DNA from: a virus | Direction: 5' to 3' (one strand) | IMG/VR virus record: IMGVR_UViG_3300035183_000733 | Span: 26,496-90,495 of that record | Length of the DNA: 64,000 bases | Notes under the pieces: model-generated | What the model was told of the DNA's origin: nothing | Databases searched by the model: none | What the model saw: the letters and a program-made list of their open reading frames with translations, nothing else | Shown: positions 22,253 to 47,727 of the stretch, piece by piece | Numbering within the stretch: the first letter of the stretch is position 1 | How the letters are laid out: every line of letters begins with the position of its first letter | Made by a program: the position numbers and the translations under genes

Positions 22253-22271
22253 CAATTAGAAAAGCAAAAGC

Positions 22272-23735: not shown

Positions 23736-23755
23736 AAAAATATCAATCCTTAAAA

Positions 23756-24235: not shown

Positions 24236-24237
24236 TC

Positions 24238-25038
24238 ATGGCAACAAGAAAAGCATTCCAAGGGGAGAACTACAAGAGGTCCGGCGAGTACGTAGGCAAC
24301 TACAACGGCGGCAGATCCGAGGTTCAGGAAATGACGAGCACCCTCAAGAGAAGGAACGTAAGGTCCATGGCGGGCAACAGCTCATACATCGGCAAGCGCG
24401 TCCTGCTCATACACAACAACGACCTCGAGAAGGCGGTCAAGGTGCTGAAGGAGTTCTACCCGAAGCACTACGCCACAGAGCTCGCGGCAAATCTTAAGAG
24501 GGATGTTGATACAGACAAGAAGATGGGTGTGTTCGAGAGTGGGATGAAGAACCTCATGACCTTTGAGAATTACTCACATAAAAAGGCAGTATTCGGTGAT
24601 TTTTCCAAGAAGGACCAAGAGCAGATCGACTACTTTATAGAGAAGTTTGCGACCAAGATGGGTGGCACCACGAGACAATCAGCCGCATGGTGGGTCGATG
24701 GCATAACAGAGATCAGCGACGATATCAAGCGTGCGGTATGGGCCGGGATACAGGAGTACATACCCAAGAGGCCGTTCCCTCTTAATAAGGCAGACTTACC
24801 TGAGTGGACAAATGAGTCCGAGCTTAAGGATGACAAGGCAGACGAGACTCACATCTCATTGACCGAGGATGACTTCCGTGCACTCGTTGCCGGCGAAATA
24901 ATTACTCCTGAGGACTTCCCGCCGCACCTGGACAAGCTAAAGCTCGCGCTGCAGGACATCGGCCAGGATAACATGATCCGTATAATAACGGACGAGATGT
25001 ACAAGGCGCGCAAAGCCGGAGATAAAAATATGAACTAA
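24238..25038 (+). CDS. hypothetical protein
   Basis: ORF 3 nt after the previous stop. Confidence 0.55.
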   Translation: MATRKAFQGENYKRSGEYVGNYNGGRSEVQEMTSTLKRRNVRSMAGNSSYIGKRVLLIHNNDLEKAVKVLKEFYPKHYATELAANLKRDVDTDKKMGVFESGMKNLMTFENYSHKKAVFGDFSKKDQEQIDYFIEKFATKMGGTTRQSAAWWVDGITEISDDIKRAVWAGIQEYIPKRPFPLNKADLPEWTNESELKDDKADETHISLTEDDFRALVAGEIITPEDFPPHLDKLKLALQDIGQDNMIRIITDEMYKARKAGDKNMN

Positions 25039-25111
25039 CCGGGAATCCTGAACCACTCTCACGGCAGAACACGGATGGAAGCACAGGAGCTACTCATAAA
25101 ATAATCATTAC

Positions 25112-25360
25112 ATGAATAAGATAAAGGACGCGCTATACTGGATGACGCACACGAAGCTCGGGTGGCTTTTAATATCGTTCGTGTGGTTCGCCGTGTTCAT
25201 GGCCATAGACAATAACGTGGAAGGATCCTGGGCTTTCTGGACAGCGATGCCCGCCCTCGCATACATAACGGGGCTGACACTCGTGATGATTGCGTACGCC
25301 TGGGTGATAAACCCCATAAGAGAGCACAAGGAAAACAAGAGGCTGCGGGAGGGAAAATAG
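25112..25360 (+). CDS. small membrane protein (2 TM), TAG stop
   Basis: hydrophobic stretches; stop codon TAG at 25358. Confidence 0.5.
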   Translation: MNKIKDALYWMTHTKLGWLLISFVWFAVFMAIDNNVEGSWAFWTAMPALAYITGLTLVMIAYAWVINPIREHKENKRLREGK

Positions 25361-25433
25361 TTTTCTGACGGTAGCGTACGGTTAGAATAATTGTGTTATC
25401 TTTGTATCTGTAACTAATAAAACTGTAAGTAAA

Positions 25434-25682
25434 ATGAAAAACATCTTCGTAAGCAGCTTGCCTTTCAAGCTGACTGAGAGCGAGCTTCAGGCCGCTTTCG
25501 AAAAGCATGGTGAGGTAACCTCTGCCAAAATTATCAAGGACCGCGAAACCAACCGTAGCAAGGGATATGGGTTCGTAGAGATGTCTGACGATGAAGCCGC
25601 AACAAAGGCTATCGCAGCTCTTAACGGTTCTGAGTTTGGTGGTCGTTCCATCATCGTTAATGAGGCACGCCCGAAAGCATAA
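25434..25682 (+). CDS. RRM-type RNA-binding protein
   Basis: RNP-2 IFVSSLP and RNP-1 KGYGFVEM; overall like cyanobacterial Rbp proteins. Confidence 0.85.
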   Translation: MKNIFVSSLPFKLTESELQAAFEKHGEVTSAKIIKDRETNRSKGYGFVEMSDDEAATKAIAALNGSEFGGRSIIVNEARPKA

Positions 25683-25727
25683 TAAAGAAAAAACAAAGTA
25701 ATTGCAGCCGAAACAAAACGCGCCGCA

Positions 25728-25741
25728 GATATATAATGTAC
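25728..25741 (+). promoter_or_regulatory. candidate promoter, GATATATAATGTAC
   Basis: truncated version of the GATATATA motif ahead of a leader ORF. Confidence 0.35.
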
Positions 25742-25822
25742 GATGAAGCAAATGATTAACATAGTTCGAATTAGCAGAAGGCGCTCAGACGTCCTGTCCG
25801 GATTATGTCCAATCGTAAGCTG
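25742..25822 (+). CDS. short leader ORF (26 aa, MKQMINIVRIS..)
   Basis: nucleotide-level similarity to the 16171 leader (ATGAAGCAAATGATTAACATAGT vs ATGAAGAAGATGATCAACATAGT). Confidence 0.3.
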
Positions 25823-25844
25823 ATAACATCGCTTTTCTTTTGGG

Positions 25845-25880
25845 ACAAGAAACCCGGACCTAATCGTCCGGGTTTTTTAT
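25845..25880 (+). terminator. rho-independent terminator / processing hairpin
   Basis: AAACCCGGAC-ctaatc-GTCCGGGTTTTTTATTTT. Confidence 0.65.
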
Positions 25881-25887
25881 TTTACAC

Positions 25888-25961
25888 TGGTGTGTGACCA
25901 AGCTGGTTAAGGCACCTCCCTGATACGGAGGAAATCGTGGGTTCGACTCCCACCGCACCAA
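25888..25961 (+). tRNA. tRNA-Ile (GAT)
   Basis: anticodon arm cctcc-ctgatac-ggagg; T-arm gtggg-ttcgact-cccac. Confidence 0.75.
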
Positions 25962-25966
25962 CAAAT

Positions 25967-26019
25967 AGTCGCTTAGCTCAGTTGGTTGGTCCCCAGTTCG
26001 AGTCTGGAAGCGACTACCA
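25967..26019 (+). ncRNA. tRNA minihelix-like element (acceptor + D-region + T-arm + CCA, no anticodon arm)
   Basis: AGTCGCT-TA-GCTCAGTTGGTTGGT-CCCAG-TTCGAGT-CTGGA-AGCGACT-A-CCA; perfect 7-bp acceptor. Confidence 0.35.
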
Positions 26020-26085
26020 AGCCAGTCAATATGCGGGATGGCTTGCATTGTTACCGGACATTAAACCACCCGGGCGTTAGAGAAT

Positions 26086-26159
26086 GCACGCGTAGATCAA
26101 CTGGATAGATCACCTGACTACGGATCAGGAGGCTGGGGGTTCGAATCCTTTCGCGTGTA
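26086..26159 (+). tRNA. tRNA-Arg (ACG)
   Basis: D-stem gatc/gatc; anticodon arm cctga-ctacgga-tcagg; acceptor gcacgcg/cgcgtgt. Confidence 0.75.
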
Positions 26160-26221
26160 CAAAATGCCTCAGTAGTCCCGTCGGCTTCGGAACCGATAGG
26201 GCAGAATATGAATTAAGATAC

Positions 26222-26294
26222 GGTCCCGTAGCTCAGCGGATAGAGCATTTGCCTTCTAAGCAAAGGGTCACTGGTTCGAATCCAGTCGGGATCA
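26222..26294 (+). tRNA. tRNA-Arg (TCT)
   Basis: anticodon arm tttgc-cttctaa-gcaaa; T-arm actgg-ttcgaat-ccagt. Confidence 0.8.
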
Positions 26295-26369
26295 CAAAAA
26301 GTAAAGTTATGAAACTGAACATCAAAAAAAGTAAAACAGATCCCTAAGGAAGTCAATTCCAAGTTCGGA

Positions 26370-27167: not shown

Positions 27168-28595
27168 TTATGCGTACATCTCTTTCAAAGTTATGAATCG
27201 CCTGTGGTCGCCACAGGCGACGAGCAGGTCCTCCTTCTTGAACTCGGAAGGGTGGTGGTACCCGCAAGCGTTGGACATCTCGTGGATCTCTTTGCGCAGC
27301 TGCTTGATGTAGTTAGCTGCGCGGACGGATTTGAGCGTCGGGTCTATGCCGTTCTGCAGCCACTTGTTCTGTGTGGCCACGCCAGACGGACACCTGTTCG
27401 TGTGACAAACCTGTGCCTGGATACAACCGATGGACATCAGCGCTTCCCTACCGACGTTAACCATATCACAGCCGAGCGCAAATGCCTTTATGGCATTGGC
27501 TGGAAGCCCGAGCTTGCCAGACCCGATGAACACTACGTTGTCGAGCGCCGGGTAAACTCTGAATATTTTTATGATGCTGTGTATTGCCTCGTTGAACGGC
27601 AGAGACAGGTGGTCTGTGAATGATGGTGGTGCTGCACCAGTGCCGCCCTCGCCGCCGTCTATTGTGATGAAATCCGGGCCGAAACCGGACATGGCCATTT
27701 GCGTGGCGAGCTCCTCCCAGTCTTTTACGCTTCCAATCGCCGCCTTTATACCGACAGGCAGACCGGTTGCGTTTGCTATCTCTTCGATAAAGTTTATCAT
27801 GCTTGTCACGTCCTTGAACGCGCTGTGAGTGCTTGGCGACACGGCGGCCTTGCCCATTTCGATGCCCCTGGCGTCTGCGATCTCCTGTGTCATCTTCGCG
27901 GCCGGCAGAATTCCTCCCTTGCCGGGCTTCGCGCCCTGGGACAGCTTTATCTCGATTGCCTTTATGCAGGGATTATCTTGCACGAGTTTCTTCAGCTTCT
28001 CGAGCGAGAACTTACCCTTCTCGTCGCACACTCCGAAGTATCCAGTTCCGAACTGGAACACCACGTCAGCCCCTTGCTTGTGATACACTGACAATCCGCC
28101 CTCCCCAGTGTTGTGGTAACAACCAGCGAGCTTAGCTCCGCCGTTAAGTGACTCTACAGCCTTTGCCGATAACGCGCCGAAGCTCATGCCAGATATGTTC
28201 ACTATAGAGTTTGGTGTGTATGGTTTTGCACGCTTGCCTTTGCCGAGCTGTTTCTTGCATGGCAGGTGACCGATGTTGTCGGAGTGCACCGGCATCATCT
28301 TGTGCTTTATGATTATGTGACCGGGTTCGTTGAAGTCCATGTCTGTACCGAACCCTGTGAGGTTGTTCTCATCCTTCGCCGAGGCATATATCCAAGCTCT
28401 GTGTCGCCTCGAGAATGGAAGCTCCTCTCTATTGTTGGCGATGAAGTACTGCCGGATTTCTGGACCTATCTTCTCGAACAGATAACGGATGTGTCCTATC
28501 ACCGGGAAGTTGTGGGTTATTGCGTGTCTGTTTTGCATTATGTCGCGTATGGCAACTACGGCCAGGAAAGCGACGAACAATAATAAATATAACAT
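27168..28595 (-). CDS. glutamate-synthase (GltB) FMN-domain-like protein with N-terminal TM anchor
   Basis: ISGMSFGALS, KLSQGAKPGKGGILP, IDGGEGGTGAAP, FIGSGKLGLP motifs typical of GltS domain-2 family proteins. Confidence 0.8.
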   Translation of the reverse strand: MLYLLLFVAFLAVVAIRDIMQNRHAITHNFPVIGHIRYLFEKIGPEIRQYFIANNREELPFSRRHRAWIYASAKDENNLTGFGTDMDFNEPGHIIIKHKMMPVHSDNIGHLPCKKQLGKGKRAKPYTPNSIVNISGMSFGALSAKAVESLNGGAKLAGCYHNTGEGGLSVYHKQGADVVFQFGTGYFGVCDEKGKFSLEKLKKLVQDNPCIKAIEIKLSQGAKPGKGGILPAAKMTQEIADARGIEMGKAAVSPSTHSAFKDVTSMINFIEEIANATGLPVGIKAAIGSVKDWEELATQMAMSGFGPDFITIDGGEGGTGAAPPSFTDHLSLPFNEAIHSIIKIFRVYPALDNVVFIGSGKLGLPANAIKAFALGCDMVNVGREALMSIGCIQAQVCHTNRCPSGVATQNKWLQNGIDPTLKSVRAANYIKQLRKEIHEMSNACGYHHPSEFKKEDLLVACGDHRRFITLKEMYA

Positions 28596-35904: not shown

Positions 35905-37104
35905 TTATTTGAATCCTATGCCCTTCGTTGGTTTTGAGTCCCCAAGTAGTACAGTGTCGTCCTCGTCCTGCCTCAGCGAGAATATGTCGGCCAGACTCAT
36001 AGGCCCGGTTGCCGTATGCTTGATCTCATACTTGTCTATCACCCTCTGAGCATCCTCTTTAGACAGCTTGTTGAACTCCTTTATGGAGAGCATGCGCTGT
36101 TTTCTGAGTATCGCTTCGTCTATCATCTTTATGTCGGAGTTGAATGTGGCAAGCACCTGAATGTTCAGGAAGTCGTTGAGTATGCCATCGGACGAGTTGA
36201 GTATGTTGGACACGCCGTCTCCGCCGTACTGGTTTATGTCCCTCTTGATGAGCACGCGCTCGGCGTCCTCTATCACGAGCAGTATGCCTGGCTTCTTCTT
36301 GCCGCCCTCTTCGTCTATCCTGTCATCAGCCCAGTCGAGCAGGAAGTTGTTGAACACCGGGGTTCCTATCATGTCGACCATGTTGTTCGGCATGTACAGG
36401 ATATTCTTCTTCGTTTTCGCCAGGTCTCTTATCAGCCTGCGTATGTAGTACGACTTGCCAGTTCCTGGCGTGCCGTACAGGAGTATGATGCCCTTGTTCT
36501 TCTCGCTTATCCTCTTCAGGTTAAGCTCGTGGAACTTGGAAAACCCGTCTCCGTAGTGAATGTCGAGGTCGAACTTCAGGTCCGCGCTTATCATCGGCAG
36601 CTCCTTGGTGTACAATCCGGACTCTGAGTCCTGGCACAACAAGTGAATCCTGTTTATCTCGTCCGACGTCTCGAGCTTTATCTTGTGCAGCGCCTCGACA
36701 AGCTCATCGGGGACACCCACATACTGATTGTACATGATGTCAACCTCCTGACACACGAGCGTGCCGTGTTCCTTGTCCTTGAACTTCTTCTGCGCCGGCT
36801 TTATCTTGTAGTGATCGTCGTCGGCAGAGTGAGACCTCCTGTTGCGAACGTACACGATGCTGTCCTTGTACTTTATGCGCATGAGGACCTGCTGGTACTC
36901 GTCGTCCTGGTACTTCCAGTCCAGGCTGCAGTCCTCCTTGTAGATGTCCTGTATAACAGATATGAACTGGTTAAACAAGAACGGCCCGTTGATCCGCATC
37001 CATGACGGTACGACCGAGTTGTCCTTTACGAAGAAGTTTAGCGCGTCAGATTCCTCCTCGTGTATCCTGTGCCCGAGCTTGTCTATCTTTAGTTTATCCA
37101 TCAT
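35905..37104 (-). CDS. AAA+ ATPase (classic clade) with unknown N-terminal domain
   Basis: Walker A LYGTPGTGKS, Walker B LLVIEDAE, sensor-2-like region ATFNSDIKMIDEAILRKQR. Confidence 0.75.
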   Translation of the reverse strand: MMDKLKIDKLGHRIHEEESDALNFFVKDNSVVPSWMRINGPFLFNQFISVIQDIYKEDCSLDWKYQDDEYQQVLMRIKYKDSIVYVRNRRSHSADDDHYKIKPAQKKFKDKEHGTLVCQEVDIMYNQYVGVPDELVEALHKIKLETSDEINRIHLLCQDSESGLYTKELPMISADLKFDLDIHYGDGFSKFHELNLKRISEKNKGIILLYGTPGTGKSYYIRRLIRDLAKTKKNILYMPNNMVDMIGTPVFNNFLLDWADDRIDEEGGKKKPGILLVIEDAERVLIKRDINQYGGDGVSNILNSSDGILNDFLNIQVLATFNSDIKMIDEAILRKQRMLSIKEFNKLSKEDAQRVIDKYEIKHTATGPMSLADIFSLRQDEDDTVLLGDSKPTKGIGFK

Positions 37105-37201: not shown

Positions 37202-37831
37202 TTAAATAGTGTAACCGCCACAGCGGATCTTCTTACCGCGGTGCGTGAAATCTGGAGCCGGCGCTTCATCGTACAGCACCACGAAATTCTGGTCTATGTA
37301 CCTCCTGAAGTCTTCGGGCGTTATCAGGTTGATGTTATCGTAAGTGTTCAGCCCGAGCAGGTTGACGTAGAACTGCGCGAACTCACTGCAGATGAACCGG
37401 TCGGACTTGCCGAGACCGGTAAGGTCTATTCCGGTCTTCTTTATTAAAGCGATGCGCAGCAGCAACGTGTTGTCGTACTTGACCTCCTTGCCGCCCCAAT
37501 AAGAGAGAATCTCCTTTATGGCAGCCTCCATCTTTGCCTCGCCAACGCGAGGACGCATGATGCAGAAGTCGCTGTACCCGTCCATCCTCCTTGACAGCGG
37601 GACGCAAACGAGACCTCCTGACCACATGTCCAGCGTGAGCACGCGGTCCATGTCATCAGCCTTCCAAACAACCCCTATGTGGTTGTAGTATGCGCGGTCG
37701 AAATACTGGATGGACCTCGATAGGAAGCTGCTTCCCCTATACAACACAAGGTCTCCAGTCTCAAAACTGTCCCTGTATTTTTTGTACTTCTCAGGTACGT
37801 CTTGGTTCTTGGAACCGATAAGCATTTGCAT
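37202..37831 (-). CDS. permuted papain-fold (YiiX-like) peptidase / amidase
   Basis: GDLVLYRGSSFLSRSIQYF.. and C-terminal Cys in RFICSEF. Confidence 0.5.
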   Translation of the reverse strand: MQMLIGSKNQDVPEKYKKYRDSFETGDLVLYRGSSFLSRSIQYFDRAYYNHIGVVWKADDMDRVLTLDMWSGGLVCVPLSRRMDGYSDFCIMRPRVGEAKMEAAIKEILSYWGGKEVKYDNTLLLRIALIKKTGIDLTGLGKSDRFICSEFAQFYVNLLGLNTYDNINLITPEDFRRYIDQNFVVLYDEAPAPDFTHRGKKIRCGGYTI

Positions 37832-37851: not shown

Positions 37852-38502
37852 TTATCTAAAACGCATCTCGTTGTCCACGTTCTCGTAATTACCGTTTACA
37901 AATATGTCGAGCAGCTCGTACATAAGCGAAGTGGTGTATCCGGGCATCTGAGCGAACCCGTTATTCGTGTAATTTATACCGAGCACTGGGTACGAACCGT
38001 TCTGCAGCCACAGGATAATGTGAGGAAGATTCGCATAGTAATAGTCATAGCACATCTCTTTGGTGACCATGTATATCATGGCCACATACGCCTCCGGAAG
38101 ACGGAATGATATTTTTTGGAACGCTGCGAATAGTCGCGATAGGCGAACCTCCCTTGTCCTCGCCGTTAGTATGTTCCAGTTGCGCTCATGCTCAGCTGGT
38201 GTGAAATAGGTGTCCCACTCACCCTGACTTATGTCTGCGGGGTAGCGGTAGTGTTGCACGCATTTCTTACGATCTTCATACATGAGAGCGCCCCAGTCGG
38301 TAACAAGTATGTCGCGCAACGAATCTCTGAACACGCCATAGTCAAACTTCCTACCGTTCGTCATCGTCAGCAGCGTATCCACCGATGTTACATCGTCTTC
38401 ATCCTGGGAAAAGACATGATTATTTGGAACCGTGTAATAGTAGTTCAAAATTCCTTGACTCGTGTCCTGGTGCGGTGTTGTTTTTAGTTTGGCTATCCTC
38501 AT
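37852..38502 (-). CDS. tail-fibre-cluster protein sharing its N-terminal module with 38520..39950
   Basis: MRIAKLKT..YYTVPNNH vs MRIAVLDS..YYIVPDNY; start reset to Met 12. Confidence 0.5.
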   Translation of the reverse strand: MRIAKLKTTPHQDTSQGILNYYYTVPNNHVFSQDEDDVTSVDTLLTMTNGRKFDYGVFRDSLRDILVTDWGALMYEDRKKCVQHYRYPADISQGEWDTYFTPAEHERNWNILTARTREVRLSRLFAAFQKISFRLPEAYVAMIYMVTKEMCYDYYYANLPHIILWLQNGSYPVLGINYTNNGFAQMPGYTTSLMYELLDIFVNGNYENVDNEMRFR

Positions 38503-38519
38503 TTTAATAACTCTATGAT

Positions 38520-39950
38520 TTATTGTGCTTCCCACATATACACCTGCGCTGTTGTCGTTCCAGTTTCAGTCCATGCAATATCGAATGATGTTGATGTGAC
38601 GTTCTGAATGACTCCCGAAATATAACTTCCCCCGCCTGTTGCTAAAAGTATTGCAAAGGTGGTTGAAGATAAACCCGCTTGAGTTGCGGTAATTGTTGCT
38701 CCGAATCGTTGATATACACACCTGTTTCCGCTTGAGTTCCATATACCAATAGATGATGTGGTTGCGGTTGCAGAGCTGTTTGCGGTAAATGTACCATAAC
38801 CATAAATTCTTATGATAGCTGGAACCTTTCCGAGACCATGTGTGATTGTTGTTGTTTGGGTAGCAGCTGGAGAAGTACCAACACCTGCTGTTGATAACGG
38901 GGCTCCAGAGTAACCAGAAACCCCAGATACTCCGCTGAACCCACTTCGACCGCTGAACCCAGATATTCCGGATGAGCCACTCGTACCGGAGAATCCTGAA
39001 GTACCTGCTGCACCGTTTGTTCCCGAGAATCCTGAAGTCCCGCTATAACCAGAAAACCCAGAGACCCCTGAGTAACCCGACATGCCGCTGAATCCAAAGA
39101 TCCCTGAGTAACCCGACAGCCCAGAAAAACCAGATGCGCCAGAGTATCCGGAGAACCCGCTTCGGCCGCTGGTACCAGAAACTCCGGAGTATCCGGAGAA
39201 CCCTGAGGAACCATTTGTACCGTCAGTACCACTGAATCCAGATACTCCAGAATAACCGGAGAAACCACTAATGCCGGAGAAACCGGACACGCCCGACACG
39301 CCCGAAAAACCTTGGGTCCCGCTGAAACCAGAAGTACCAGAAATACCGATATTTCCCGAATAACCCGACACGCCACTGAATCCGCTCACTCCAGAGACCC
39401 CCGACACGCCAGATGATCCACTCGTGCCGCTTATACCAGAATAACCGGATAAGCCGAGTCCTGAATAACCAGAGACCCCGCTAAATCCAGAAGCAGCTTG
39501 TGCATCCGCCAAATTTTGCGTTGTTATTAACTTTCCAGATGTACCAAGATCTGGTAGCTCTATCAGTACCGTCTGAGTCAAAGATCTTGGGTCGAATGAT
39601 ATTACGTCTGGACGCCATACAAGATCCTGCATGAACTCGTATATCTCGGCCCTTGTAAAGTAGTCGAGAATATTCTCAGAGTTCGGCATAACAAAATGCC
39701 TTCTGTACTCGTATTTCATCTCAGCGGAAACGCCAGACCAATTCGGAATAACGTGCGAATTTGCCGAGTCCTTCCAGTCAAAATACTCCATGCGCTTAAC
39801 TGAAAAGAACAAGTACAACGTCTCAGGCGAAGTGACGTCCGTGGCGCCATTGGTGGCAAAGTTATAGTTGTCCGGCACTATGTAATAGTTGCTCAACTGT
39901 CCGTCGACCGTAGATTGAATGCCGTTGCTATCTAATACTGCTATCCTCAT
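38520..39950 (-). CDS. collagen-like (Gly-X-Ser)n repeat fibre protein
   Basis: about 60 uninterrupted SG[FYVTIL] triplets; start reset to MRIAVLD so that it abuts the upstream stop. Confidence 0.7.
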   Translation of the reverse strand: MRIAVLDSNGIQSTVDGQLSNYYIVPDNYNFATNGATDVTSPETLYLFFSVKRMEYFDWKDSANSHVIPNWSGVSAEMKYEYRRHFVMPNSENILDYFTRAEIYEFMQDLVWRPDVISFDPRSLTQTVLIELPDLGTSGKLITTQNLADAQAASGFSGVSGYSGLGLSGYSGISGTSGSSGVSGVSGVSGFSGVSGYSGNIGISGTSGFSGTQGFSGVSGVSGFSGISGFSGYSGVSGFSGTDGTNGSSGFSGYSGVSGTSGRSGFSGYSGASGFSGLSGYSGIFGFSGMSGYSGVSGFSGYSGTSGFSGTNGAAGTSGFSGTSGSSGISGFSGRSGFSGVSGVSGYSGAPLSTAGVGTSPAATQTTTITHGLGKVPAIIRIYGYGTFTANSSATATTSSIGIWNSSGNRCVYQRFGATITATQAGLSSTTFAILLATGGGSYISGVIQNVTSTSFDIAWTETGTTTAQVYMWEAQ

Positions 39951-39952
39951 TT

Positions 39953-42046
39953 TTATATCCTTGTCATTGTAAAGTTCATGTACGATATAGTTATGTCCGC
40001 GGCGGATGTTATATTCTGCACCCACAACTCTACGTAATCGTTAGTTGCAAGAGATACCAAGCAATTGACTCCAGCTGCGTATTGATCAGTAGAAGTCCTG
40101 AAGAATGAATTTATCTGCGACTTTGTAACTCGCGCGCCGTTCTTGTAAACAAAGAAACTGAACGTCTCGTTGGCGGATGCAGATACAGACGACACGGACA
40201 CGTTTATTAAAAATTCTCTCGTTGCCGCACCAGTATAAGTCAGTCTTCCATTGGAATGCGTCACGTCTGCCGTAAGATCTCCGGCTGTAGTAGTTCCAGC
40301 CACTTTCAATGGAGTGGATGTTGCCGCGATTGCCGTTGCCGTTGCGTTGCCGTTTAAGTACATTTCTCCGTATGTCGATGCTGGCGAATTTCCAGAAAAA
40401 CCGCTCGTGCCAGAGTAACCAGAATATCCGCTAACTCCAGAATAGCCAGAAACGCCAGAGAACCCAGATACACCACTAAAACCACTCACTCCAGAGCGGC
40501 CAGAAACGCCAGAGAACCCAGATACACCACTAAAACCACTCACTCCAGAGTAACCTGAGGTTCCTGAGGTTCCGGAGTAACCCGAAAATCCCGACGTGCC
40601 GGAGTAACCCGAAAATCCCGACGTGCCGGAGTAACCCGAAAATCCCGACGTGCCGGAGTAACCCGATACGCCGGAGAATCCGCTCGTCCCAGAGTAACCA
40701 GATATGCCGGAGGTTCCTGAGTATCCGCTTGTTCCTGAGTATCCGCTGAATCCGCTTGTTCCTGAGTATCCAGAAACGCCCGAGTATCCGCTCACACCGG
40801 AGTATCCAGAAACGCCAGAGTATCCGCTCACACCGGAGTATCCAGAAACGCCCGAGAATCCTGATGTACCGCTGTAACCCGAAAATCCGGAAGTGCCGCT
40901 GTAACCCGAAAATCCGGAAGTGCCGGAGCCCGAAAATCCGGAGGTGCCAGAGTAACCCGAAGTACCAGAAAAACCAGACACGCCTGAGTAGCCCGATAAA
41001 CCTATGCCAGAGTAACCGGAGATTCCAGACTCACCCTGCACGCCCTGCACGCCGTCAAGATTGACGGTCCACGAAGAATAAGTTCCCGAACCCTCCTCTG
41101 TTATGACGAGGACTACGAGTTCTCCAGTGCCTGAGTTGTACGACTGCACCTCTCCTATGAAAAGATTTGTAGCGTTGTACGCGACGACAACTCCTTGTCC
41201 TACGGAATACGATAATCCCGACTCAACAAAAATTATTTGTATATTAGGAGACCCAACTGGTATTGTGAGCGAATCAGTTGATGATGTTAAATATCTGTCC
41301 GCTTTGCCAGAGAATCCCGAAAGCCCCGAGTAACCCGAGTAACCCGAGTAACCACTTACCCCAGAGTAGCCGGAGACCCCTGATACCCCGCTTGTACCTG
41401 AGTAACCAGACTCACCAGAAGTGCCAGAAATTCCAGAAATGCCAGAGTATCCACTGAAACCTGATATGCCCGAATAACCAGACTCGCCTGATGTGCCGCT
41501 CGTTCCAGAGTAACCGCTGAATCCCGAGGTTCCGGAGTATCCGGAGACTCCAGAGTAACCCGAATAGCCCGAGACTCCAGAGTAACCCGAGAACCCGCTC
41601 ACGCCAGAGGTTCCACTCGTTCCAGAGTAACCGCTAAAACCGCTCACTCCAGAGTGGCCAGAAACGCCAGAGTAACCCGAGAACCCACTAACGCCAGAGT
41701 AACCCGAGAACCCACTAACGCCAGAGTAACCCGAGATGCCAGAAAATCCAGATATTCCCGAGTGACCACTAACGCCAGAAAACCCACTAAAGCCCGACAC
41801 ACCTGTTACGAAATTGTAGAAATCGTCAGCTGAAGTAACAGAATATCCATTATAGTTGCCGGTCAATTTACCGTCATCTATAGCTGTTATTAGATCGCGT
41901 GAATTCTGTAATTCCGACAGCGAGTACTCCTCCAGCAGATCATGGTCGACGACTGGATGATAAAAAGTACGTTCACCGAGGTCATAAAGAACCACGATGT
42001 CCGGACTTCCAACTCCTGTTGTCGTTATTTTTAAAAATGGCACCAT
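39953..42046 (-). CDS. collagen-like (Gly-X-Ser)n repeat fibre protein, 697 aa
   Basis: two long GXS tracts flanking a globular segment. Confidence 0.7.
40380..41000. repeat. in-frame tandem nucleotide repeats encoding the GXS tracts (e.g. perfect 27-nt x3 at 40572-40652)
   Basis: ccggagtaacccgaaaatcccgacgtg repeated three times exactly; additional 36-nt and about 50-nt repeat units nearby. Confidence 0.8.
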
Positions 42047-42051
42047 TTATA

Positions 42052-43137
42052 TTACCTTCTCTTTATTACTATTGTTCCCTTCGGTCTGTCTATGGATGCC
42101 CCAGTCATATACAGTTGAAGTAAATCGCCGGCGTTCACATCCACGTTGTATGTATCTGAGTAATTGCTCGTTTGTGCACCAGTTAAATTTATCACAGCTC
42201 CGGTAAGAGTACCGTTGTTCCGCACCTCTATGCTCCACGCGTTGCCGTTAACCGAGTTGCATGATGCGGACATTGCCACTATAGTGCCATTGTAAGGCAT
42301 TACGACCGGCGCCAGGTTCATGGGCACACCGTCCTCGTCCCTTAGGTATTGATTCGTTGTGTTTGCCGAGTTGCGAGATGCGCTAATGGTAAGCAAGCCG
42401 TAGCTCGGATCACCACTGAGGCCTGAGAATCCGCTCACTCCCGAATAACCGGAAACTCCACTGAATCCAGATACTCCCGATCCGCTCACTCCCGAATAAC
42501 CACTTACGCCAGAAAACCCCGAAACTCCACTGAATCCGGATACTCCAGAAAAACCGGACACGCCACTGAATCCAGATACTCCCAAGTATCCGCTGAACCC
42601 TGAGGTTCCTGAGAATCCGATCACTCCTGAGAATCCACTCACTCCTGAGTATCCAGATATGCCAGAAGTTCCGCTAAATCCACTAACCCCGCTTGTACCG
42701 GAGTAGCCGGAGAACCCCGATGTGCCTGAATAACCGGAGAACCCCGATATACCTGTAACTTTTTTCTCGCCAAGAGTGGTGAGTACCATCCATCCAGCAC
42801 CGTCGTTGAATACGAGCTGCTCGTCCGGTTTAAGTATCACGCTTATCAATGTTCTGCTCGTACCCGTGTTGTAGAGCTCGACTGTTATCACCCTGTTGAC
42901 CGTGTCGTTGTTGAACACGTTCACGTATTTTATGTTCCTGTATATGGATGCAGCAGGAGGTGCCACAGCCGTTACCGGTGTGTTGCCAGTGAGCACACCG
43001 TCATTGCCACCGGGCGTCATAACTGGTGTTGTCGACTCTATGTCATCGTACGCCGTTACAAATATCGGCTCGCTCGTCGTCGCCGCAGCGTCCGAGTATA
43101 TCCTGAGAGATTTGTTTATGGTATCTAATCTTATCAT
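42052..43137 (-). CDS. collagen-like repeat fibre protein with conserved MIRLDT N-terminal module
   Basis: N-terminus MIRLDTINKSLRIYSDAAATTSEPIFVTAYDDI is paralogous to that of 45406..46173. Confidence 0.7.
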   Translation of the reverse strand: MIRLDTINKSLRIYSDAAATTSEPIFVTAYDDIESTTPVMTPGGNDGVLTGNTPVTAVAPPAASIYRNIKYVNVFNNDTVNRVITVELYNTGTSRTLISVILKPDEQLVFNDGAGWMVLTTLGEKKVTGISGFSGYSGTSGFSGYSGTSGVSGFSGTSGISGYSGVSGFSGVIGFSGTSGFSGYLGVSGFSGVSGFSGVSGFSGVSGFSGVSGYSGVSGSGVSGFSGVSGYSGVSGFSGLSGDPSYGLLTISASRNSANTTNQYLRDEDGVPMNLAPVVMPYNGTIVAMSASCNSVNGNAWSIEVRNNGTLTGAVINLTGAQTSNYSDTYNVDVNAGDLLQLYMTGASIDRPKGTIVIKRR

Positions 43138-43283
43138 CAGCCTACCTGTATTGTAACTATTTCGGCCACTTGGGTGAACGTGTACGCAGAGCCGTCGAGG
43201 CTTATGCCGACAATAGTGCCGGGGGTCGTGTCTGCGACCTCGAGCACAAATTCTGACGGATCAAAAACTATGTCGTTGATCAT
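43137..43283 (-). CDS. small ORF (48 aa) between fibre genes
   Basis: ATG at 43283; its TGA overlaps the ATG of the next gene; below the ORF-track cut-off. Confidence 0.25.
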   Translation of the reverse strand: MINDIVFDPSEFVLEVADTTPGTIVGISLDGSAYTFTQVAEIVTIQVG

Positions 43284-43289
43284 GTTCTA

Positions 43290-45404
43290 TTACGCCTGCG
43301 TAAGCAGCGCCCTCACTTTAATTGAACCCGGCAGCGACGTAGCGACGTAACGGATGTAGTTGCCCACGACATCTGCCGAAGAGCTCCATGCGTTCCATAC
43401 GTTGCCGTCGGTCGAGTACTGCCACGTTCCGAAGGCGGAAGCCGTCACTGTGTCGTCGACTATCGGCACGCCCGATACCGCGTTGTACAGCCTTATCCTC
43501 AGGTCAGGTATTGTGCCGCCCCATAGGGACGATTGCCTGTACCCGAAGGTGTTAGATGTCACGCTTGACTTGGCCACTGACGGCGTGTAATGAGAATCAG
43601 TTGTGTCGTCCTCGTAAACCACCGTAAGTCCCATTATCCTCGCGGGTATGCACGACTCGCCAAGCACTCTAAATTCGAACTTAAACTGTATAGACGTTGA
43701 CGGCGATATTGATGTTAGCGTGCCACTATCGTCAAGTAGAGTCCACGTACCAGAGTTATCAGATATTCCGGCAGTCCTGACGTAAGTCTTGAACGGCTCC
43801 GGATTCTTAACGAGATAATCATTACCCATCTTCTTAATCTCGTTCACGTAAACCCTATACAGCTTGGTGGCGTTCGACGTGTCCATGGCAGGTGTTATTA
43901 GGACCTGGTTAGTGGTTGACGTGTATGTCCAGTGTGCCTCTATCGGTATGGTGTATATCTGATTGGCCGTTGCTGCCGTACTGTGACGTGCCATATACAG
44001 TATTCCCCCCTCCGACCAAATAGAAAAAGTGGAAGCCTGTATTGAAGGGTGTGGTACTATAGTGGAATCCGCCGTAGACTGGTCGAGCTGTCTGTCGTCT
44101 GCGAGGAATATCAACTCGAACTGCGACGATATTGTGTTATATGTGGTGACGTAGCTGCGGGTACTTGTAGCACCAGTTGTCATTATCACGAGTCTGTCTA
44201 TCAAGCTCGAGATCTCTACAGAAGACAACGCGGATGTCGCTGCGAATGTTGCAGTCCCGCCCGGCGGGACCTCGACCATTACGTCCGAGGTCCAGGTTGT
44301 GCTACCGTTGGTTATGTTAGTCAACGCACACCTGTAAACCCTTGTGGTGGTTACAAAATATAAGCTCTCAACCCCACTTCCAGGACCGTGAGATAACGTA
44401 CCAATCCTGCCGTTATTGATCTGCGACATGGTTCCTGTCAGAACTTGGTTACCAGTCTTAATAATGTTAGTAGTAGTATCCTTGCCCGCGGCAAGCGTTA
44501 GCGCCATTCTTATGTTATACACGAAGCAGATAGATCCTGTCGCATTCAGTACGTATACATACTGAGATGTCCAAGAAGTCCTCTGTCCTATGGCGGATCC
44601 TGCAGCTGTAGTATTAGTGACCACCGCCGCGTCGGCGAGCCAGTACACAGCCCTTATATTATCGACTGTGGTCGCGGCCGGTATCGTGGTACCGGACGTC
44701 GTAAAATTTTCTATTCTCAATCCCTTTGTGACGAACAGACCACCATTGGTCGCAGTCGCATTAGTCGTAGACGTCACACACATCAAGTCTTGTATTACGT
44801 ATGCAGTTCCACCTGGTATAGTTCCCGCAGAGGTCGTTAACGTTATGGAAGTATCGCCGCCGATGGCCGAGATTTCGTACCACGTGGTTATCGCAGTCGG
44901 ATCGGTGGACCCGAATCCAATTCGGCATCCTACGCTCATCCTATCAGTTAGCCAGGCAGATCCGCTTCCGGTCACGGCCGTGCCTGATACAGATACTGTA
45001 CCAGTTGTATACGACTCGCATATCATCCTGAACCCCCTTATGGTATGCGCGGTCGCGGTTGGATATGTCAGAGTTATGAAACCCCTCCAGTTGAACATTG
45101 ACGTGACCTTGTTGTACTCATACATAATTATCCTTCTCGTTGCAGCGGCAGCGGCGTTATCGGCAAGGAACACGTAATCGGTATTCGTGTCACAGTTTAT
45201 TACGTGCGGGAACATCCCCGGTATCGCCGTGGATTGTTCCATTGGTCTTGCCACACCTATTATCGATGGACCTGCAAACTTGTCGGTAGGGTTGGATCCC
45301 GTGTATTGCCTGATCTGCGTACCAACGTTGGTCTTGGTGGAGTCGTACGACGTTATAGGCGTCGTGGCTCCGGTGAATAAATGTTCTACTGCTTTCTTTG
45401 ACAT
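43290..45404 (-). CDS. Thr/Ser-rich tail-fibre / receptor-binding-like protein, 704 aa
   Basis: long ORF, low-complexity beta-rich composition typical of fibre shafts. Confidence 0.6.
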   Translation of the reverse strand: MSKKAVEHLFTGATTPITSYDSTKTNVGTQIRQYTGSNPTDKFAGPSIIGVARPMEQSTAIPGMFPHVINCDTNTDYVFLADNAAAAATRRIIMYEYNKVTSMFNWRGFITLTYPTATAHTIRGFRMICESYTTGTVSVSGTAVTGSGSAWLTDRMSVGCRIGFGSTDPTAITTWYEISAIGGDTSITLTTSAGTIPGGTAYVIQDLMCVTSTTNATATNGGLFVTKGLRIENFTTSGTTIPAATTVDNIRAVYWLADAAVVTNTTAAGSAIGQRTSWTSQYVYVLNATGSICFVYNIRMALTLAAGKDTTTNIIKTGNQVLTGTMSQINNGRIGTLSHGPGSGVESLYFVTTTRVYRCALTNITNGSTTWTSDVMVEVPPGGTATFAATSALSSVEISSLIDRLVIMTTGATSTRSYVTTYNTISSQFELIFLADDRQLDQSTADSTIVPHPSIQASTFSIWSEGGILYMARHSTAATANQIYTIPIEAHWTYTSTTNQVLITPAMDTSNATKLYRVYVNEIKKMGNDYLVKNPEPFKTYVRTAGISDNSGTWTLLDDSGTLTSISPSTSIQFKFEFRVLGESCIPARIMGLTVVYEDDTTDSHYTPSVAKSSVTSNTFGYRQSSLWGGTIPDLRIRLYNAVSGVPIVDDTVTASAFGTWQYSTDGNVWNAWSSSADVVGNYIRYVATSLPGSIKVRALLTQA

Positions 45405-45405
45405 C

Positions 45406-46173
45406 TTAGTCTTTCATTATTTTGAGGTGCACAGTAACTCTCGTTATAGTTGATACTGAGTCGATGTTAAAGGCGAATATGTCGCCGGCATTGACCGTAG
45501 TATCCGTCCACCCCGTTAGGTTCGTGTTCCTGTTCTTTATCTGCGATACGAGGCGAGGCTTATCGCTGCCCGGTATAGAATCGGCGACAGTCGGCGGATA
45601 GTTGTCGTACGTGTCCTTCCACACGTCCACCTGGATGTCGCCTATTTGGTCGGCGAAAACTACCCACGCTACTATGGTACCAGAGAACGGCACGGTCACG
45701 TACGCTTTAGTTCCTATGGTCAGAGGGTTTGCTCCGTTGTCAAGACCGAACCCGATCGAACCGACCTTTATGTTCTGCCCAGATTCCCCGGTAACTCGTA
45801 TCTCACCAAGAGAGTTCATTACCATCCATCCGGCGGCGTCGCTGAACACGAGCTCTTCCCCTATCTCGAGGTAAACCTTCATCAGCGTACGTTGGTCGAC
45901 TCCATTGAGGAGCTCAATAGTTACCGTATGCGGTGCCGTATCGACATTAGCTACACTTATGTACTTTATGTTCCTGTAGAACGGCGACACAGGCGACGAA
46001 ACTGCAGTAACAGGCGTTGTACCATTCAACGATCCGTCCTGACTCCCTGGAGTGAACGCCGGATTGACCACGCGTATATCGTCATACGACGTTACGAATA
46101 CAGGCTCGCTCGTCGTCGCCGTAGCGTCCGAGTATATCCTAATGCTCTTCGAGGTCGTATCTAAACGGATCAT
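45406..46173 (-). CDS. fibre-cluster protein carrying the MIRLDT N-terminal module
   Basis: MIRLDTTSKSIRIYSDATATTSEPVFVTSYDDI. Confidence 0.55.
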   Translation of the reverse strand: MIRLDTTSKSIRIYSDATATTSEPVFVTSYDDIRVVNPAFTPGSQDGSLNGTTPVTAVSSPVSPFYRNIKYISVANVDTAPHTVTIELLNGVDQRTLMKVYLEIGEELVFSDAAGWMVMNSLGEIRVTGESGQNIKVGSIGFGLDNGANPLTIGTKAYVTVPFSGTIVAWVVFADQIGDIQVDVWKDTYDNYPPTVADSIPGSDKPRLVSQIKNRNTNLTGWTDTTVNAGDIFAFNIDSVSTITRVTVHLKIMKD

Positions 46174-46188
46174 ATTTTATATATTTTC

Positions 46189-47727
46189 TTATAGTCCGAG
46201 GCTGTTTATTATCATAGCGAGTATACCAGCATCAAATCCGCTGAAACCAGAGGCGCCGGAGAACCCGCTCACGCCGGAGAACCCGCTCACGCCGGAGAAC
46301 CCTGAGGCGCCGAAGTATCCGCTGAAACCAGAGGTGCCCGATAAACCGCTCGTCCCACTCTCTCCCGAGAAACCGCTCGTCCCACTCTCTCCCGAGAATC
46401 CTGAGGCTCCGCTGAATCCTGAGACTCCTGAGTAACCGCTCAAACCAGAGGTGCCCGAGAAACCAGAGGCGCCCGAGAAACCGCTCACCCCGCTGAAACC
46501 CGAAAATCCAGAGGCTCCAACGAAAGACACCGGCGAGTGAACGTGTGTAGCGTTTGTAAACCCTTCAACGTATAGACTCACCGTTATATTAGACACAGAA
46601 GTGGTCTTAGCATAATACTTGACGAGTATCCTATCCGTGAGGTCGAGGTCGAACTCGCCCTGTAATATCTCTTTAGAATAGAGTGCTACGACCGCGCCGT
46701 TTATCTCGGCAGTCTCAGCACTGAATAAAGGTGTCTCCGTTCCGACGAAATCCCTCTTGTACACGCGTATAACTATTCGCGTGTCTCCAACTGGGTTGTC
46801 GACCGAAGAGTAAGTATCGAATATCCACGAACCACCAGATATGTAAAGCTGGTCTGGGTTAGACGGTAAGGTCAAGAATTGCTGGATAAGAACCTCGCCT
46901 GTCGTATTATTACACACCGCGGTGAATGAACTCTCTGGATCTATAGAATCGGGATTGATATTCAATTGCCTGAAACCAACTATATCAGAGGCATCGTTCC
47001 TCAGGTAGTATAATGCACCACCGGCTACACCATTGACGCCGGAAAATCCGGAAGCGCCGTCAACACCAGAAAATCCAGAAAATCCAGAGACTCCGGACAT
47101 ACCATCCTGTCCATAGTAACCTGATGAACCTGATATTCCGCTGAACCCGGACGTCCCGCTCGCTCCGCTCACACCCGATATGCCACTTGCGCCGGACTCA
47201 CCAGAGAAACCCGACGTACCGGAGAATCCTGATACTCCGCTGAATCCGCTCACACCACTGAACCCTGATACGCCCGATGATCCACTCGTGCCGCTTAGAC
47301 CAGATGTGCCGGAAAACCCACTCGTTCCGGAAGTACCGCTGAATCCAGACGTGCCGGAGAATCCTGATACTCCGCTGAATCCGCTCACACCGCTGAACCC
47401 TGATACGCCCGAGAAACCACTCACGCCCGAAGTACCACTCAATCCGGACGTTCCGGAAATACCGGAAGTGCCGGAGAACCCGGAGGTTCCACTGAATCCT
47501 GAAGTTCCACTCGCGCCGACAAAACTGCCGCTATCGAGCCACTTGACCCCGTCGCCAGTGGTCATAAGTATTTGGCCGGATATACCGGACGAGCCGTCGC
47601 CGTCGACGAGCGTCGAATTAAGCGCCAGAGGTCCGGACATTGCATCACCCGCCTTGTTCAACTTTGAATCAAGATCGGCCTGCAGTCCATCTATCTGTCG
47701 AATGGGTATTTGACTTTTTGGTGTCAT
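46189..47727 (-). CDS. tail-fibre protein with collagen-like GXS tracts
   Basis: N-terminus ..[16 protein letters not shown].. then two GXS tracts around a globular domain. Confidence 0.7.
47180..47440. repeat. about 135-nt in-frame tandem duplication inside the fibre gene
   Basis: gtgccggagaatcctgatactccgctgaatccgctcacacc.ctgaaccctgatacgcccga occurs at 47213 and 47348. Confidence 0.7.

Follow-up and report, generated by a model that had tools for sequence, protein, structure and literature searches.

A putative virion fibre cluster with long Gly-X-Ser collagen-like tracts in an uncultured huge phage

BclA, F-BclA, and ExsFA are collagen-like glycoproteins of the exosporium and endospore appendages of the Bacillus cereus group; BclA carries Gly-Pro-Thr triplets with glycosylated Thr, and its tract length varies between strains. 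Known collagen-like phage tail proteins include PHROG families 6320, 5073, 1806, and 30509, proteins of E. coli O157 prophages (PMC3368898), and tail proteins with collagen-like repeats from Streptococcus thermophilus and lactococcal phages. Phage collagen-like repeats have been said to act as hot spots of recombination and to determine host range, and in Guarani virophage a host-range change went along with the loss of 81 nt from the 27-nt collagen-like repeats of ORF8 (PMC7242381). High contents of Pro and of KGD/KGE and Thr triplets are reported for collagen-like proteins of viruses (PMC11923368). A collagen stalk with a trimeric head is shared by C1q, collagens VIII and X, adiponectin, ectodysplasin A, and BclA.

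The locus described here lies in a 64,000-nt stretch (the window) of an uncultured phage of ~374 kb. Seven closely packed minus-strand genes (A-G) occupy positions 37852-47727, and four of them (B, C, D, and G) carry long Gly-X-Ser tracts:
37852..38502, minus strand, A, 216 aa, without a tract; first ~105 aa paralogous to the B N-terminal module
38520..39950, minus strand, B, 476 aa
39456-39950, minus strand, B N-terminal module (aa 1-165)
38898-39455, minus strand, B tract (aa 166-351), 62 unbroken triplets
38523-38897, minus strand, B variable C-terminal head (aa 352-476)
39953..42046, minus strand, C, 697 aa
41804-42046, minus strand, C N-terminal module (aa 1-81)
41300-41803, minus strand, C tract 1 (aa 82-249), 56 triplets
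41054-41299, minus strand, C central domain (82 aa)
40385-41053, minus strand, C tract 2 (aa 332-554), 6+8+59 triplets
39956-40384, minus strand, C predicted TNF/C1q-like head (aa 555-697)
42052..43137, minus strand, D, 361 aa
42754-43137, minus strand, D N-terminal beta-sandwich module (aa 1-128), common to F
42406-42753, minus strand, D tract (aa 129-244), 31+7 triplets
42055-42405, minus strand, D C-terminal head (aa 245-361)
43137..43283, minus strand, ORF of 48 aa located between E and D, its stop sharing one base with the start codon of D
43290..45404, minus strand, E, 704 aa, Thr/Ser-rich, without a tract
45406..46173, minus strand, F, 255 aa, without a tract; D-type N-terminal module (aa 1-128) directly joined to a C-terminal domain (aa ~138-255)
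46189..47727, minus strand, G, 512 aa
47518-47727, minus strand, G N-terminal module (aa 1-70)
47014-47517, minus strand, G tract 1 (aa 71-238), 56 triplets
46519-47013, minus strand, G central domain (165 aa)
46231-46518, minus strand, G tract 2 (aa 404-499), 32 triplets
46192-46230, minus strand, G hydrophobic C-terminal tail (13 aa)

The region is probably a virion fibre cluster of a huge phage, encoding trimeric collagen-like fibres with adjustable length and exchangeable tips. B, C, D, and G would be modular fibres, in each of which a small N-terminal beta-domain may dock onto the virion or another fibre, followed by one or two long Gly-X-Ser tracts that globular beta-sandwich domains end or interrupt. 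The start of B at MRIAVL agrees with P0064, P0005, and the orthologues in L010/L013. As in collagen-like phage tail proteins, Gly-X-Y tracts lie between globular fibre domains in a modular architecture, and PHROG matches in the cluster were to tail-fibre and collagen-like minor tail families. In contrast to other viral collagen-like proteins, the Gly-X-Ser tracts are not rich in Pro, Thr, or KGD/KGE triplets. They also differ from BclA in having Ser at Y and aromatic or beta-branched residues at X and in lacking Pro, and they occur in a phage virion context, whereas BclA lies on the spore. Likenesses to BclA include a weak match of the D head to Pfam BclA_C (E 0.006, below the cut-off) and P0042, which carries BclA_C. 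Among GenBank phage records, no match was found to the cluster DNA, to gene C, or to the C head.

B, C, D, and G together contain 317 Gly-X-Y triplets, with Ser at the Y position in ~90% of them (87-100% per tract). As the preliminary description had stated, the X position was mostly F (81), V (66), Y (55), T (51), or I (18), which together account for 85%. It had also given all four ORFs 40-70 unbroken triplets; all four do carry tracts, but D has only 31 (plus 7), and the longest runs elsewhere were 62 in B, 56 and 59 (plus 6 and 8) in C, and 56 and 32 in G. The longest unbroken run in an orthologue was 144 triplets (62 in the window), and Gly-every-third runs of such length are far above chance. 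All four proteins matched Pfam Collagen (PF01391) with 58-181 bits (cut-off 27.2 bits), and the register breaks (4/4) were of the single G-x-G type. Aromatic X residues were avoided in neighbouring triplets (0.21 versus 0.43 expected, z -6.8) and recurred at lag 2 (z +3.5), a spacing that suggests that the tracts are ordered rather than random. Ser at Y, previously called unusual, is so relative to characterised collagens but is common in metagenomes, where one search matched at least 1082 proteins, the best 120 of which had a median of 76% Ser at Y. No match to Ser-at-Y tracts was found in cultured phages, where the low-complexity filter masked a protein query made of tract alone, or in the literature; proline-free Gly-X-Ser is an unstudied kind of collagen-like repeat.

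The most likely fold of the tracts would be a homotrimeric collagen-type triple helix, which, at the usual rise of 0.286 nm per residue, would form a stiff stalk of ~27 to 63 nm per tract. Their composition counts against a triple helix: the 951 tract residues include 2 Pro, 4 Lys/Arg, and 11 Asp/Glu, and all known triple-helix stabilisers are missing. Host-guest peptide work has assigned a low triple-helix propensity to aromatic residues at X and Ser at Y. No such tract was present among solved structures, in which PDB matches shared the Gly register only. In the AF2 monomer model of D, the N-terminal module reached a pLDDT of ~92 and the head ~50, and the tract was unstructured (30-45), a result that is neither for nor against a trimer. 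The scarcity of Pro and charge, the low pLDDT, and the missing structural analogue would also suit virion fibres whose tracts are flexible low-complexity Gly/Ser linkers with aromatic 'stickers', akin to [G/S]Y[G/S] low-complexity domains and acting as elastic or adhesive tethers between globular domains. Consistent with such linkers, known Pro-poor Thr-type repeats fold only when glycosylated (PMC11923368). Also counting against a triple helix, (Gly-Pro-Thr)10 stays a random coil when it is not glycosylated (PMC11923368), and a scan of genes surrounding the cluster revealed no glycosyltransferase. However, a disordered linker needs neither an unbroken Gly-every-third register over 56-144 triplets nor 9-nt-multiple duplications nor a single interruption type, and the avoidance of aromatic residues in adjacent triplets is not expected of it. 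In addition, a tract of C abuts the TNF/C1q-like head, whose characterised relatives are all trimers. We consider the linker explanation quite unlikely.

The atypical composition might instead reflect another ordered glycine-rich fold, either a polyglycine-II bundle like those of T-even gp38 adhesins and the snow-flea antifreeze protein or a beta-solenoid; glycine-rich PGII sandwiches do occur in phage adhesins. Such a fold is highly improbable here: AF2 left the 116-residue D tract without compact fold-back, the length range among orthologues (up to 3.8-fold) fits a linear rod more readily than a closed bundle, and the Pfam Collagen matches are strong.

The AF2 model of the C head (pLDDT 97.7, pTM 0.90) showed a predicted TNF/C1q-like jelly roll, although sequence identity to C1q/TNF proteins was only 8-14% and no homology to Pfam BclA_C or C1q was detectable by sequence. 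C thus has the same order of stalk and head as C1q and its relatives, but belongs to another kingdom, with another function and an entirely different stalk composition, and both C and G have internal globular domains between two tracts. A trimeric head on C would keep the three chains in register and nucleate the helix. The best structural matches of this head include ExsFA, BclA, and F-BclA, as would suit collagen-like trimers that decorate the capsid or form a surface nap, comparable to BclA on the Bacillus exosporium or the collagen-like fibrils on giant viruses, and that are not receptor-recognising tail fibres. The cluster in the window does not adjoin baseplate, sheath, or tube genes, its flanks encoding non-structural proteins (an AAA ATPase, a UvsX-like protein, DNA polymerase B, and topoisomerase II), and seven fibre-like genes are many for one tail. 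However, the receptor-binding domains of cyanophage A4 and A-1(L) tail fibres and of mycobacteriophage TM4 gp23, and the receptor-binding protein of lactococcal phage 1358, matched the C head equally well. Moreover, the E orthologue in L008 adjoins sheath-like and tube-like tail ORFs (judged from ORF N-termini by inspection), P0137 has an F-type domain in fusion with a tail Collar domain, and tip replacement among close strains, as seen in B, is what receptor-binding proteins typically show. A capsid or nap location therefore appears doubtful; the fibres may be attached to the tail rather than to the head and may bind receptors. The locus had been called a host-range cluster, a name that overstates a role which is inferred.

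The sharing of N-terminal modules was confirmed for D and F (128 aa, 59% identity, E 6e-46) and for A and B (~105 aa, 33% identity, E 5e-11). The earlier picture of paralogous fibres with shuffled modules holds as regards the shuffling and the collagen-like nature, but paralogy is limited to these two modules and the tracts, the other globular domains being unrelated. The C N-terminal module also heads fibre-like proteins in LR745206 and LR756500. In L010 and L013, the D head was 63-66% and the G central domain 65-70% identical; the latter also occurs in 8 homologues and in the 642-735 kb phages LR756501-3, and the G tail was 92-100% identical in L010, L013, and P0136. The heads of B and D had no confident fold assignment. 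A showed 62% identity to its L010 orthologue and no Pfam or PHROG match. The 48-aa ORF is conserved (called as a gene in L003, L005, L010, L011, and L013; 50-57% identity to L010/L013), without a Pfam match. E had no match in Pfam, PHROG, or GenBank phages; its orthologues were 62-63% identical in L010 and L013 and 61-65% in contigs of huge phages (363 and 519 kb), and it is a conserved core protein of the cluster and probably a virion structural protein. The F C-terminal domain matched phrog_10330 ('virion structural protein'), phrog_35197, and cyanophage virion structural proteins; besides the Collar fusion, this type of domain is found elsewhere after ordinary collagen tracts.

At the DNA level, the tracts had been described as perfect in-frame tandem repeats. 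Three arrays bear on this:
40572-40666, minus strand, 27-nt tandem unit x3.5 in tract 2 of C, in-frame, encoding (GTSGFSGYS)n (TRF match 100%, score 190)
40764-40861, 36-nt tandem unit x2.7 (TRF match 95%)
47206-47448, 135-nt duplication, copies 82% identical
The first, originally given as three copies at 40572-40652, was recovered in full; the 36-nt units exist but are not perfect, and the duplication is not exact as had been claimed. All but two TRF periods were multiples of 9 nt. Perfect repetition was thus confined to patches, and most tract DNA was synonymously scrambled: exact repeated 27-mers covered 581/2853 tract bases (~20%) and exact 18-mers 1074/2853. Usage covered the full sets of six Ser and four Gly codons, roughly as outside the tracts, and Ser codons switched between TCN and AGY between strains while the protein register was kept, indicating that selection acts on the protein. 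This synonymous diversification lowers slippage, suggesting selection against it. The tracts may evolve by in-frame gain (duplication) and loss of 9-nt multiples, by which fibre length would be adjustable. ORF8 of Guarani and Sputnik likewise has viral 27-nt collagen-like tandem repeats, and its in-frame 81-nt deletion is the type of mechanism proposed here; however, the repeats number only five, are not Gly-X-Ser, and occur in a virophage of giant viruses.

We compared the window with L004, L010, L013, and L019, and also with L003, L005, L008, and L011. L010 and L013 have the same gene order, with tracts 1.1-3.8 times longer than those of the window; the triplet numbers (window/L010/L013) were 62/110/179 in B, 129/145/195 in C, 38/72/144 in D, and 88/147/177 in G. 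Copy number thus differed among relatives but not between near-identical assemblies: L010 and L011 were 99.98% identical over 8238 nt without an indel (72- and 145-triplet genes included), and L003 was 100% identical to the window. These comparisons leave rapid copy-number variation by slippage (VNTR) unproven. Turnover of tract sequence does occur between close strains, as L019, a 95%-identical strain, has a near-perfect 18-nt array directly upstream of the B head where the window is scrambled. This array, the exact in-frame units (27 nt and also 36 nt), and short-read contigs from several samples that break off inside tracts might indicate contingency loci, in which high-frequency slipped-strand mispairing within one phage population maintains a standing mix of fibre lengths. 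Against this stand the scrambled tract DNA and the two pairs without an indel across complete tracts, and assembler failure on repeats explains the contig breaks equally well, making contingency loci unlikely.

The cassette exchange proposed earlier was borne out by B. Of the five genomes compared, three (L004, L010, and L013) have an unrelated B head, and L019 has the same one as the window; the heads of the window, L004, L010, and L013 had no mutual similarity, and L004 is a strain 91-95% identical to the window. The other globular modules were kept (51-74% identity in L010 and L013), except for the N-terminal end of G. Together, adjustable length and a replaceable B tip would let the phage alter both its reach and its specificity; differences between related phages in stalk length and in one head are expected for host-recognition proteins. 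The B tip may have been replaced by recombination, the swapped segment running from a point within or upstream of the tract to the B stop codon. L019 was ~100% identical to the window from the last 2.5 triplets of the B tract onward.

The region at 37852-47727 probably encodes collagen-like phage fibres, with a TNF/C1q-like head in gene C and an uncharacterised Gly-X-Ser stalk chemistry. A preliminary description, read from the sequence alone, had claimed a set of Gly-X-Ser fibre paralogues; its observation was confirmed in part and its interpretation is partly supported. Seven abutting minus-strand genes and one 48-codon ORF occupy the region, and they are listed here together with the two genes that come after them.

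Features of the fibre cluster and adjoining genes
35905-37104, minus strand, AAA ATPase
37202-37831, minus strand, 209-aa protein (weak PHROG 1128 match, no Pfam match)
37852-38502, minus strand, gene A, 216 aa
38520-39950, minus strand, gene B, 476 aa
39953-42046, minus strand, gene C, 697 aa
42052-43137, minus strand, gene D, 361 aa
43137-43283, minus strand, 48-codon ORF between E and D, its stop overlapping the D start by one base
43290-45404, minus strand, gene E, 704 aa
45406-46173, minus strand, gene F, 255 aa
46189-47727, minus strand, gene G, 512 aa

All seven cluster genes end in TAA and abut under code 11, and no sign of stop-codon recoding was seen in the cluster. The 48-codon ORF was called as a gene and was conserved (50-57% identity) in every related locus; it had no family match. 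A non-coding repeat or CRISPR-like array was rejected, given that three genomes conserve these ORFs and that they are intact and tightly packed. The long ORFs on the plus strand over the tracts (e.g., 47180-47713, with 'PENP' repeats) were also rejected as genes, being antisense artefacts of the repeat. Such ORFs at 47180-47713, 46052-46435, and 40756-41064 carry Pro-Glu-Asn-Pro-like repeats antisense to the tracts and could be miscalled genes. The sharing of N-terminal modules between cluster genes, described earlier as shuffling, was borne out: a 128-aa stretch is 59% identical between D and F, and one of about 105 aa is 33% identical between A and B. Apart from these modules and the tracts, B, C, D, and G have globular parts that are unrelated to one another. 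Many PHROG tail-fibre families matched these four proteins, for the most part by way of the collagen tract.

The genes flanking the cluster in the window are non-structural. The 209-aa protein and the AAA ATPase come after the fibre genes in the window and in the related contigs L004, L010, and L019, and may be functionally linked to the cluster, for example in assembly. The window also encodes a UvrD-like helicase, a RecA/UvsX-like protein, a family B DNA polymerase, both type II topoisomerase subunits, a class I Glu/Gln-tRNA synthetase (5530-7092, plus strand; Pfam tRNA-synt_1c, E 1e-90), and a glutamate-synthase domain protein (27168-28595, minus strand; E 2e-76). Its 20 tRNA genes lie in three groups (4607-5466, 15605-16963, and 20196-26295) and include a tRNA with a CTA anticodon, of amber-suppressor type, at 15692-15763 (labelled tRNA-Pyl by ARAGORN), as well as several duplicated pairs, some 85-91 nt long. 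No reverse transcriptase of a diversity-generating retroelement was found by Pfam in the approximately 30 ORFs scanned. Because the same proteins occur on JGI contigs of 373,721 and 373,759 bp and the closest records in GenBank are those of uncultured huge phages (462-635 kb), the source is an uncultured huge phage.

Uninterrupted Gly-X-Y triplets number 62 in B, 56 and 59 in C (plus runs of 6 and 8), 31 in D (plus 7), and 56 and 32 in G. Ser fills 87-100% of the Y positions per tract, and F, V, Y, T, and I together account for 85% of X. B, C, D, and G all passed the gathering threshold of Pfam Collagen (PF01391; 58.5-181.1 bits against 27.2), a match that rests mainly on the Gly register. Ser at Y had been called unusual. 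This holds against characterised collagens but not against metagenomes, where it is commonplace: a word-indexed metagenome search with C returned, from 8000 candidates, at least 1082 proteins at E<=1e-5, and the best 120 of these 1082 had medians of 85 triplets, 76% Ser at Y, 39% aromatic residues at X, and 0.6% Pro. Many of the matches join tracts to the central domains of C or G or to other domains, including BclA_C, peptidase S74, and CBM5/12, and the N-terminal domain of some is taken to be the major-tropism-determinant domain Mtd_N (PF18454). In the literature searched, no paper was found that contains motif strings such as GYSGYSG or GFSGVSG, or that uses the term Gly-X-Ser, and no example of the class was found in a cultured phage. 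Among 50,697 GenBank phage records, neither the whole region (megablast) nor gene C (blastn, word 11) gave a match. E gave no match in tblastn; nor did the pure tract, a result that is uninformative because the low-complexity filter masks the query.

At the DNA level, the tracts had been described as perfect tandem repeats. This was true of individual arrays, such as a 27-nt unit present 3.5 times at 40572-40666 and an exact 18-nt unit present 2.7 times at 46254-46302 (100% match), one of several perfect 18-nt arrays found by TRF, but not of the tracts overall. A 36-nt unit was also recovered by TRF (2.7 copies), at a match of 95%, whereas the supposedly exact 135-nt duplication failed, its copies being only 82% identical. 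Exact repeated 27-mers hold 581 of the 2853 tract bases, and exact tandem repeats make up about 20-38% of tract DNA. The TRF periods are multiples of 9 nt in all but two cases, and those two sit where the Gly register slips by one residue. All six Ser codons and all four Gly codons occur, with much the same usage as beyond the tracts.

The globular head of C (39956-40384) has TNF/C1q jelly-roll topology and directly follows the tract. Its fold matches are given below.

Fold matches of the C head, with match scores
Ectodysplasin A and ExsFA: 15.2
F-BclA tip domain: 14.9
Tail fibre domains of cyanophages A4 and A-1(L): 14.7 and 14.2
BclA: 14.4-14.5
C1q: 13.5
Collagen VIII NC1: 12.9

Among these relatives are several trimeric heads that come directly after a collagen stalk, and, judging from their behaviour, the C head is likely to be a homotrimer. 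The fold also resembles the receptor-binding domains of cyanophages A4 and A-1(L), TM4, and phage 1358. At the sequence level, the head is a member of a large family that lacks annotation and comprises 3371 representative clusters at E<=0.001 (relatives P0183-P0332); of its 150 best members, only 2 have collagen tracts. It matched no Pfam family, and neither did 28 of its relatives; membership of C1q (PF00386), TNF (PF00229), or BclA_C (PF18573) was not found, and ten long relatives likewise had no Pfam match. The C head had no sequence relative in the PDB and was absent from the 50,697 GenBank phage records (tblastn, E 1e-5). The D head had no match in a word-indexed protein search and reached Pfam BclA_C at E 0.006 (16.9 bits, below the cut-off of 38). 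Neither the C head nor the D head found a match among PDB sequences in profile searches; one of the alignments (A3) was contaminated by the collagen tracts of its full-length rows. A MAFFT alignment of D with full-length F homologues was left out since the C-terminal domain of F was misaligned onto the tract. In an AF2 monomer model of D, the all-beta N-terminal module was modelled with confidence (pLDDT about 92), the tract came out unstructured (30-45), and the head was poorly defined (about 50); fold searches with this model returned generic beta-sandwich similarities only.

The tracts probably form a triple helix. This is favoured by a Gly register that is strict over 56-144 triplets, the longest in an orthologue, by the fact that all four register breaks are of one type (G-x-G), by duplications in multiples of 9 nt, and by the TNF-like head adjoining the C tract. 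The X positions are also ordered: aromatic residues avoid adjacent triplets (0.21 observed against 0.43 expected, z -6.8) and recur at lag 2 (z +3.5). The composition argues the other way, that such chains may not fold as collagen. The tracts are nearly devoid of Pro and charge (2 Pro, 4 Lys/Arg, and 11 Asp/Glu among 951 residues), and the known collagen stabilisers, namely Pro/Hyp, glycosylated Thr, and Lys-Gly-Asp/Glu salt-bridge triplets, are not what they carry, Y being Ser. Aromatic residues at X and Ser at Y have low helix propensity in host-guest peptides, which further disfavours a helix, as does the fact that the PDB matches to gene C share the Gly register only and include no solved chain of Gly-X-Ser composition. 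The tracts also depart from the pattern reported in a 2025 survey, where viral collagen-like proteins were rich in KGD/KGE and Thr triplets (PMC11923368); the same article recalls that (Gly-Pro-Thr)10 is unfolded unless glycosylated. If the triple helix is nevertheless correct, it might be stabilised by Ser hydroxyl/water networks, a regular aromatic ladder, or Ser O-glycosylation. Each tract could then expose 27-63 nm of Tyr/Phe and Ser/Thr as a multivalent glycan-binding or self-associating face, and a stalk with such a face would have a role in adsorption rather than serve as a passive spacer. That the tracts, in which aromatic and beta-branched residues alternate at X, represent a distinct, unstudied class of triple helix without Pro, Hyp, charge pairs, or Thr, with an adsorption-active stalk surface, seems to us unlikely.

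The comparison of repeat copy number among isolates, suggested in the preliminary description, gave a divided answer. Near-identical assemblies showed no indel: L010 and L011, which represent the same phage, were 99.98% identical over 8238 nt across complete tracts, and L003 was 100% identical to the window. The identity of L010 and L011 counts against rapid tract variation, and both pairs count against high-frequency slippage. In contrast, the tract was rearranged in the 95%-identical L019 (SRR14244080), which has the same B head as the window. L019 and the window are approximately 100% identical from the last 2.5 triplets of the B tract onward, whereas just upstream L019 switches abruptly to a near-perfect 18-nt (GFSGVS) tandem array, providing direct evidence of tract turnover by tandem duplication between close strains.

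Within the D orthologue, a C-to-A change between L011 (3452-4843) and L010 (13067-14458) creates a stop near the tract/head boundary, splitting the gene into ORFs of 336 and 111 aa. This stop could reflect a sequencing error or be a truncated form that occurs naturally. Almost every short-read contig ends within a tract; those of L003, L004, L005, L011, L012, L019, and L020 (at least 6 samples) stop there. Because the tracts break short-read assemblies, the fibre genes of such phages are probably under-recovered and systematically fragmented in metagenomes.

The gene order G, F, E, 48/49-aa ORF, D, C, B was kept in L010 (a 482-kb contig) and L013 (a 29.7-kb contig). B is followed by A, a 192-aa gene, and an AAA ATPase in L010, and by a different 112-aa gene in L013. 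Both contigs had globular modules 51-74% identical to their counterparts in the window, except for the B head and the N-terminal end of G. Among these species-level relatives, stalk length varied up to 3.8-fold.

Triplets per gene in the window and two related contigs
G: window 88, L010 147, L013 177
D: window 38, L010 72, L013 144
C: window 129, L010 145, L013 195
B: window 62, L010 110, L013 179

No similarity was detectable among the B heads of the window, L010, and L013, and the head was also unrelated in L004, which is 91-95% identical at the nucleotide level elsewhere. The B head therefore displays the hypervariability of a distal domain among close relatives that is a trait of receptor-binding proteins. 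In L004/L005 (SRR23592399; 87-95% identical to the window), B ends in a different head, and the tract before it retains about 85% protein identity but only about 70% DNA identity, with TCN/AGY serine switches. From the changed head and the diverged tract, the recombined segment includes the tract end as well as the head; downstream, it ends at the B stop codon. Huge phages that are more distantly related (L007, 519 kb; L008, 363 kb; LR745206; LR756500) possess E, the F-type C-terminal domain, and the C-type N-terminal module and are without Gly-X-Ser tracts. By eye, from N-termini, the E orthologue adjoins ORFs resembling tail sheath and tube in L008 and terminase-like and portal-like ORFs in L007. 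A metagenome-contig scan with E yielded no relatives beyond these distant ones.

We propose that the products would be trimeric fibres, with collagen-type rods linking their globular domains. With 0.286 nm for each residue, the predicted rods would measure approximately 53 nm in B, 48 and 63 nm in C, 33 nm in D, and 48 and 27 nm in G, and for the L013 orthologues the total would come to approximately 125-170 nm per protein. Reach would change through tandem duplication and loss inside the tracts, and recombination including the tract end would swap the B tip. A precedent comes from Guarani virophage, where an 81-nt in-frame deletion in 27-nt collagen-like repeats accompanied a host-range change (PMC7242381).

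Phage fibres, spore surfaces, and animal proteins already provide examples of a collagen-like stalk with a TNF/C1q-like head, so the overall architecture is not new. What is new is the stalk chemistry: in a long Gly-X-Ser chain, proline is essentially absent, charged residues are very few, and close to half of the X residues are aromatic. Judged by the current rules of collagen stability, such a stalk should fold poorly, yet it keeps its register and recurs in more than 1000 metagenomic proteins. If the triple helix is true, it would widen the sequence range for collagen folding and offer a recombinant, hydroxylation-free scaffold. The related genomes form a clear natural series in which anchoring and head domains stay constant, stalks vary, and a single tip is exchanged. 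In huge phages, about whose hosts and adsorption little is known, this makes it possible to test how fibre length and tip identity relate to host range.

The last 13 residues of G (46192-46230) are hydrophobic and directly follow the last Gly-X-Ser triplet. This tail is the most conserved piece of the cluster, with 92-100% identity in L010, L013, and P0136 (a protein of unrelated length) against 51-74% for other modules, and might serve in trimerisation/nucleation or in docking. Counterparts of the central 165-aa domain of G, at 29-30% identity, are present in the largest published huge-phage genomes (642-735 kb), at 414545-415045 in LR756501/LR756503 and at 127636-128112 in LR756502. At its end, this domain carries a conserved His-x-His motif, which reads THVHSP in G but THVHTP in the relatives.
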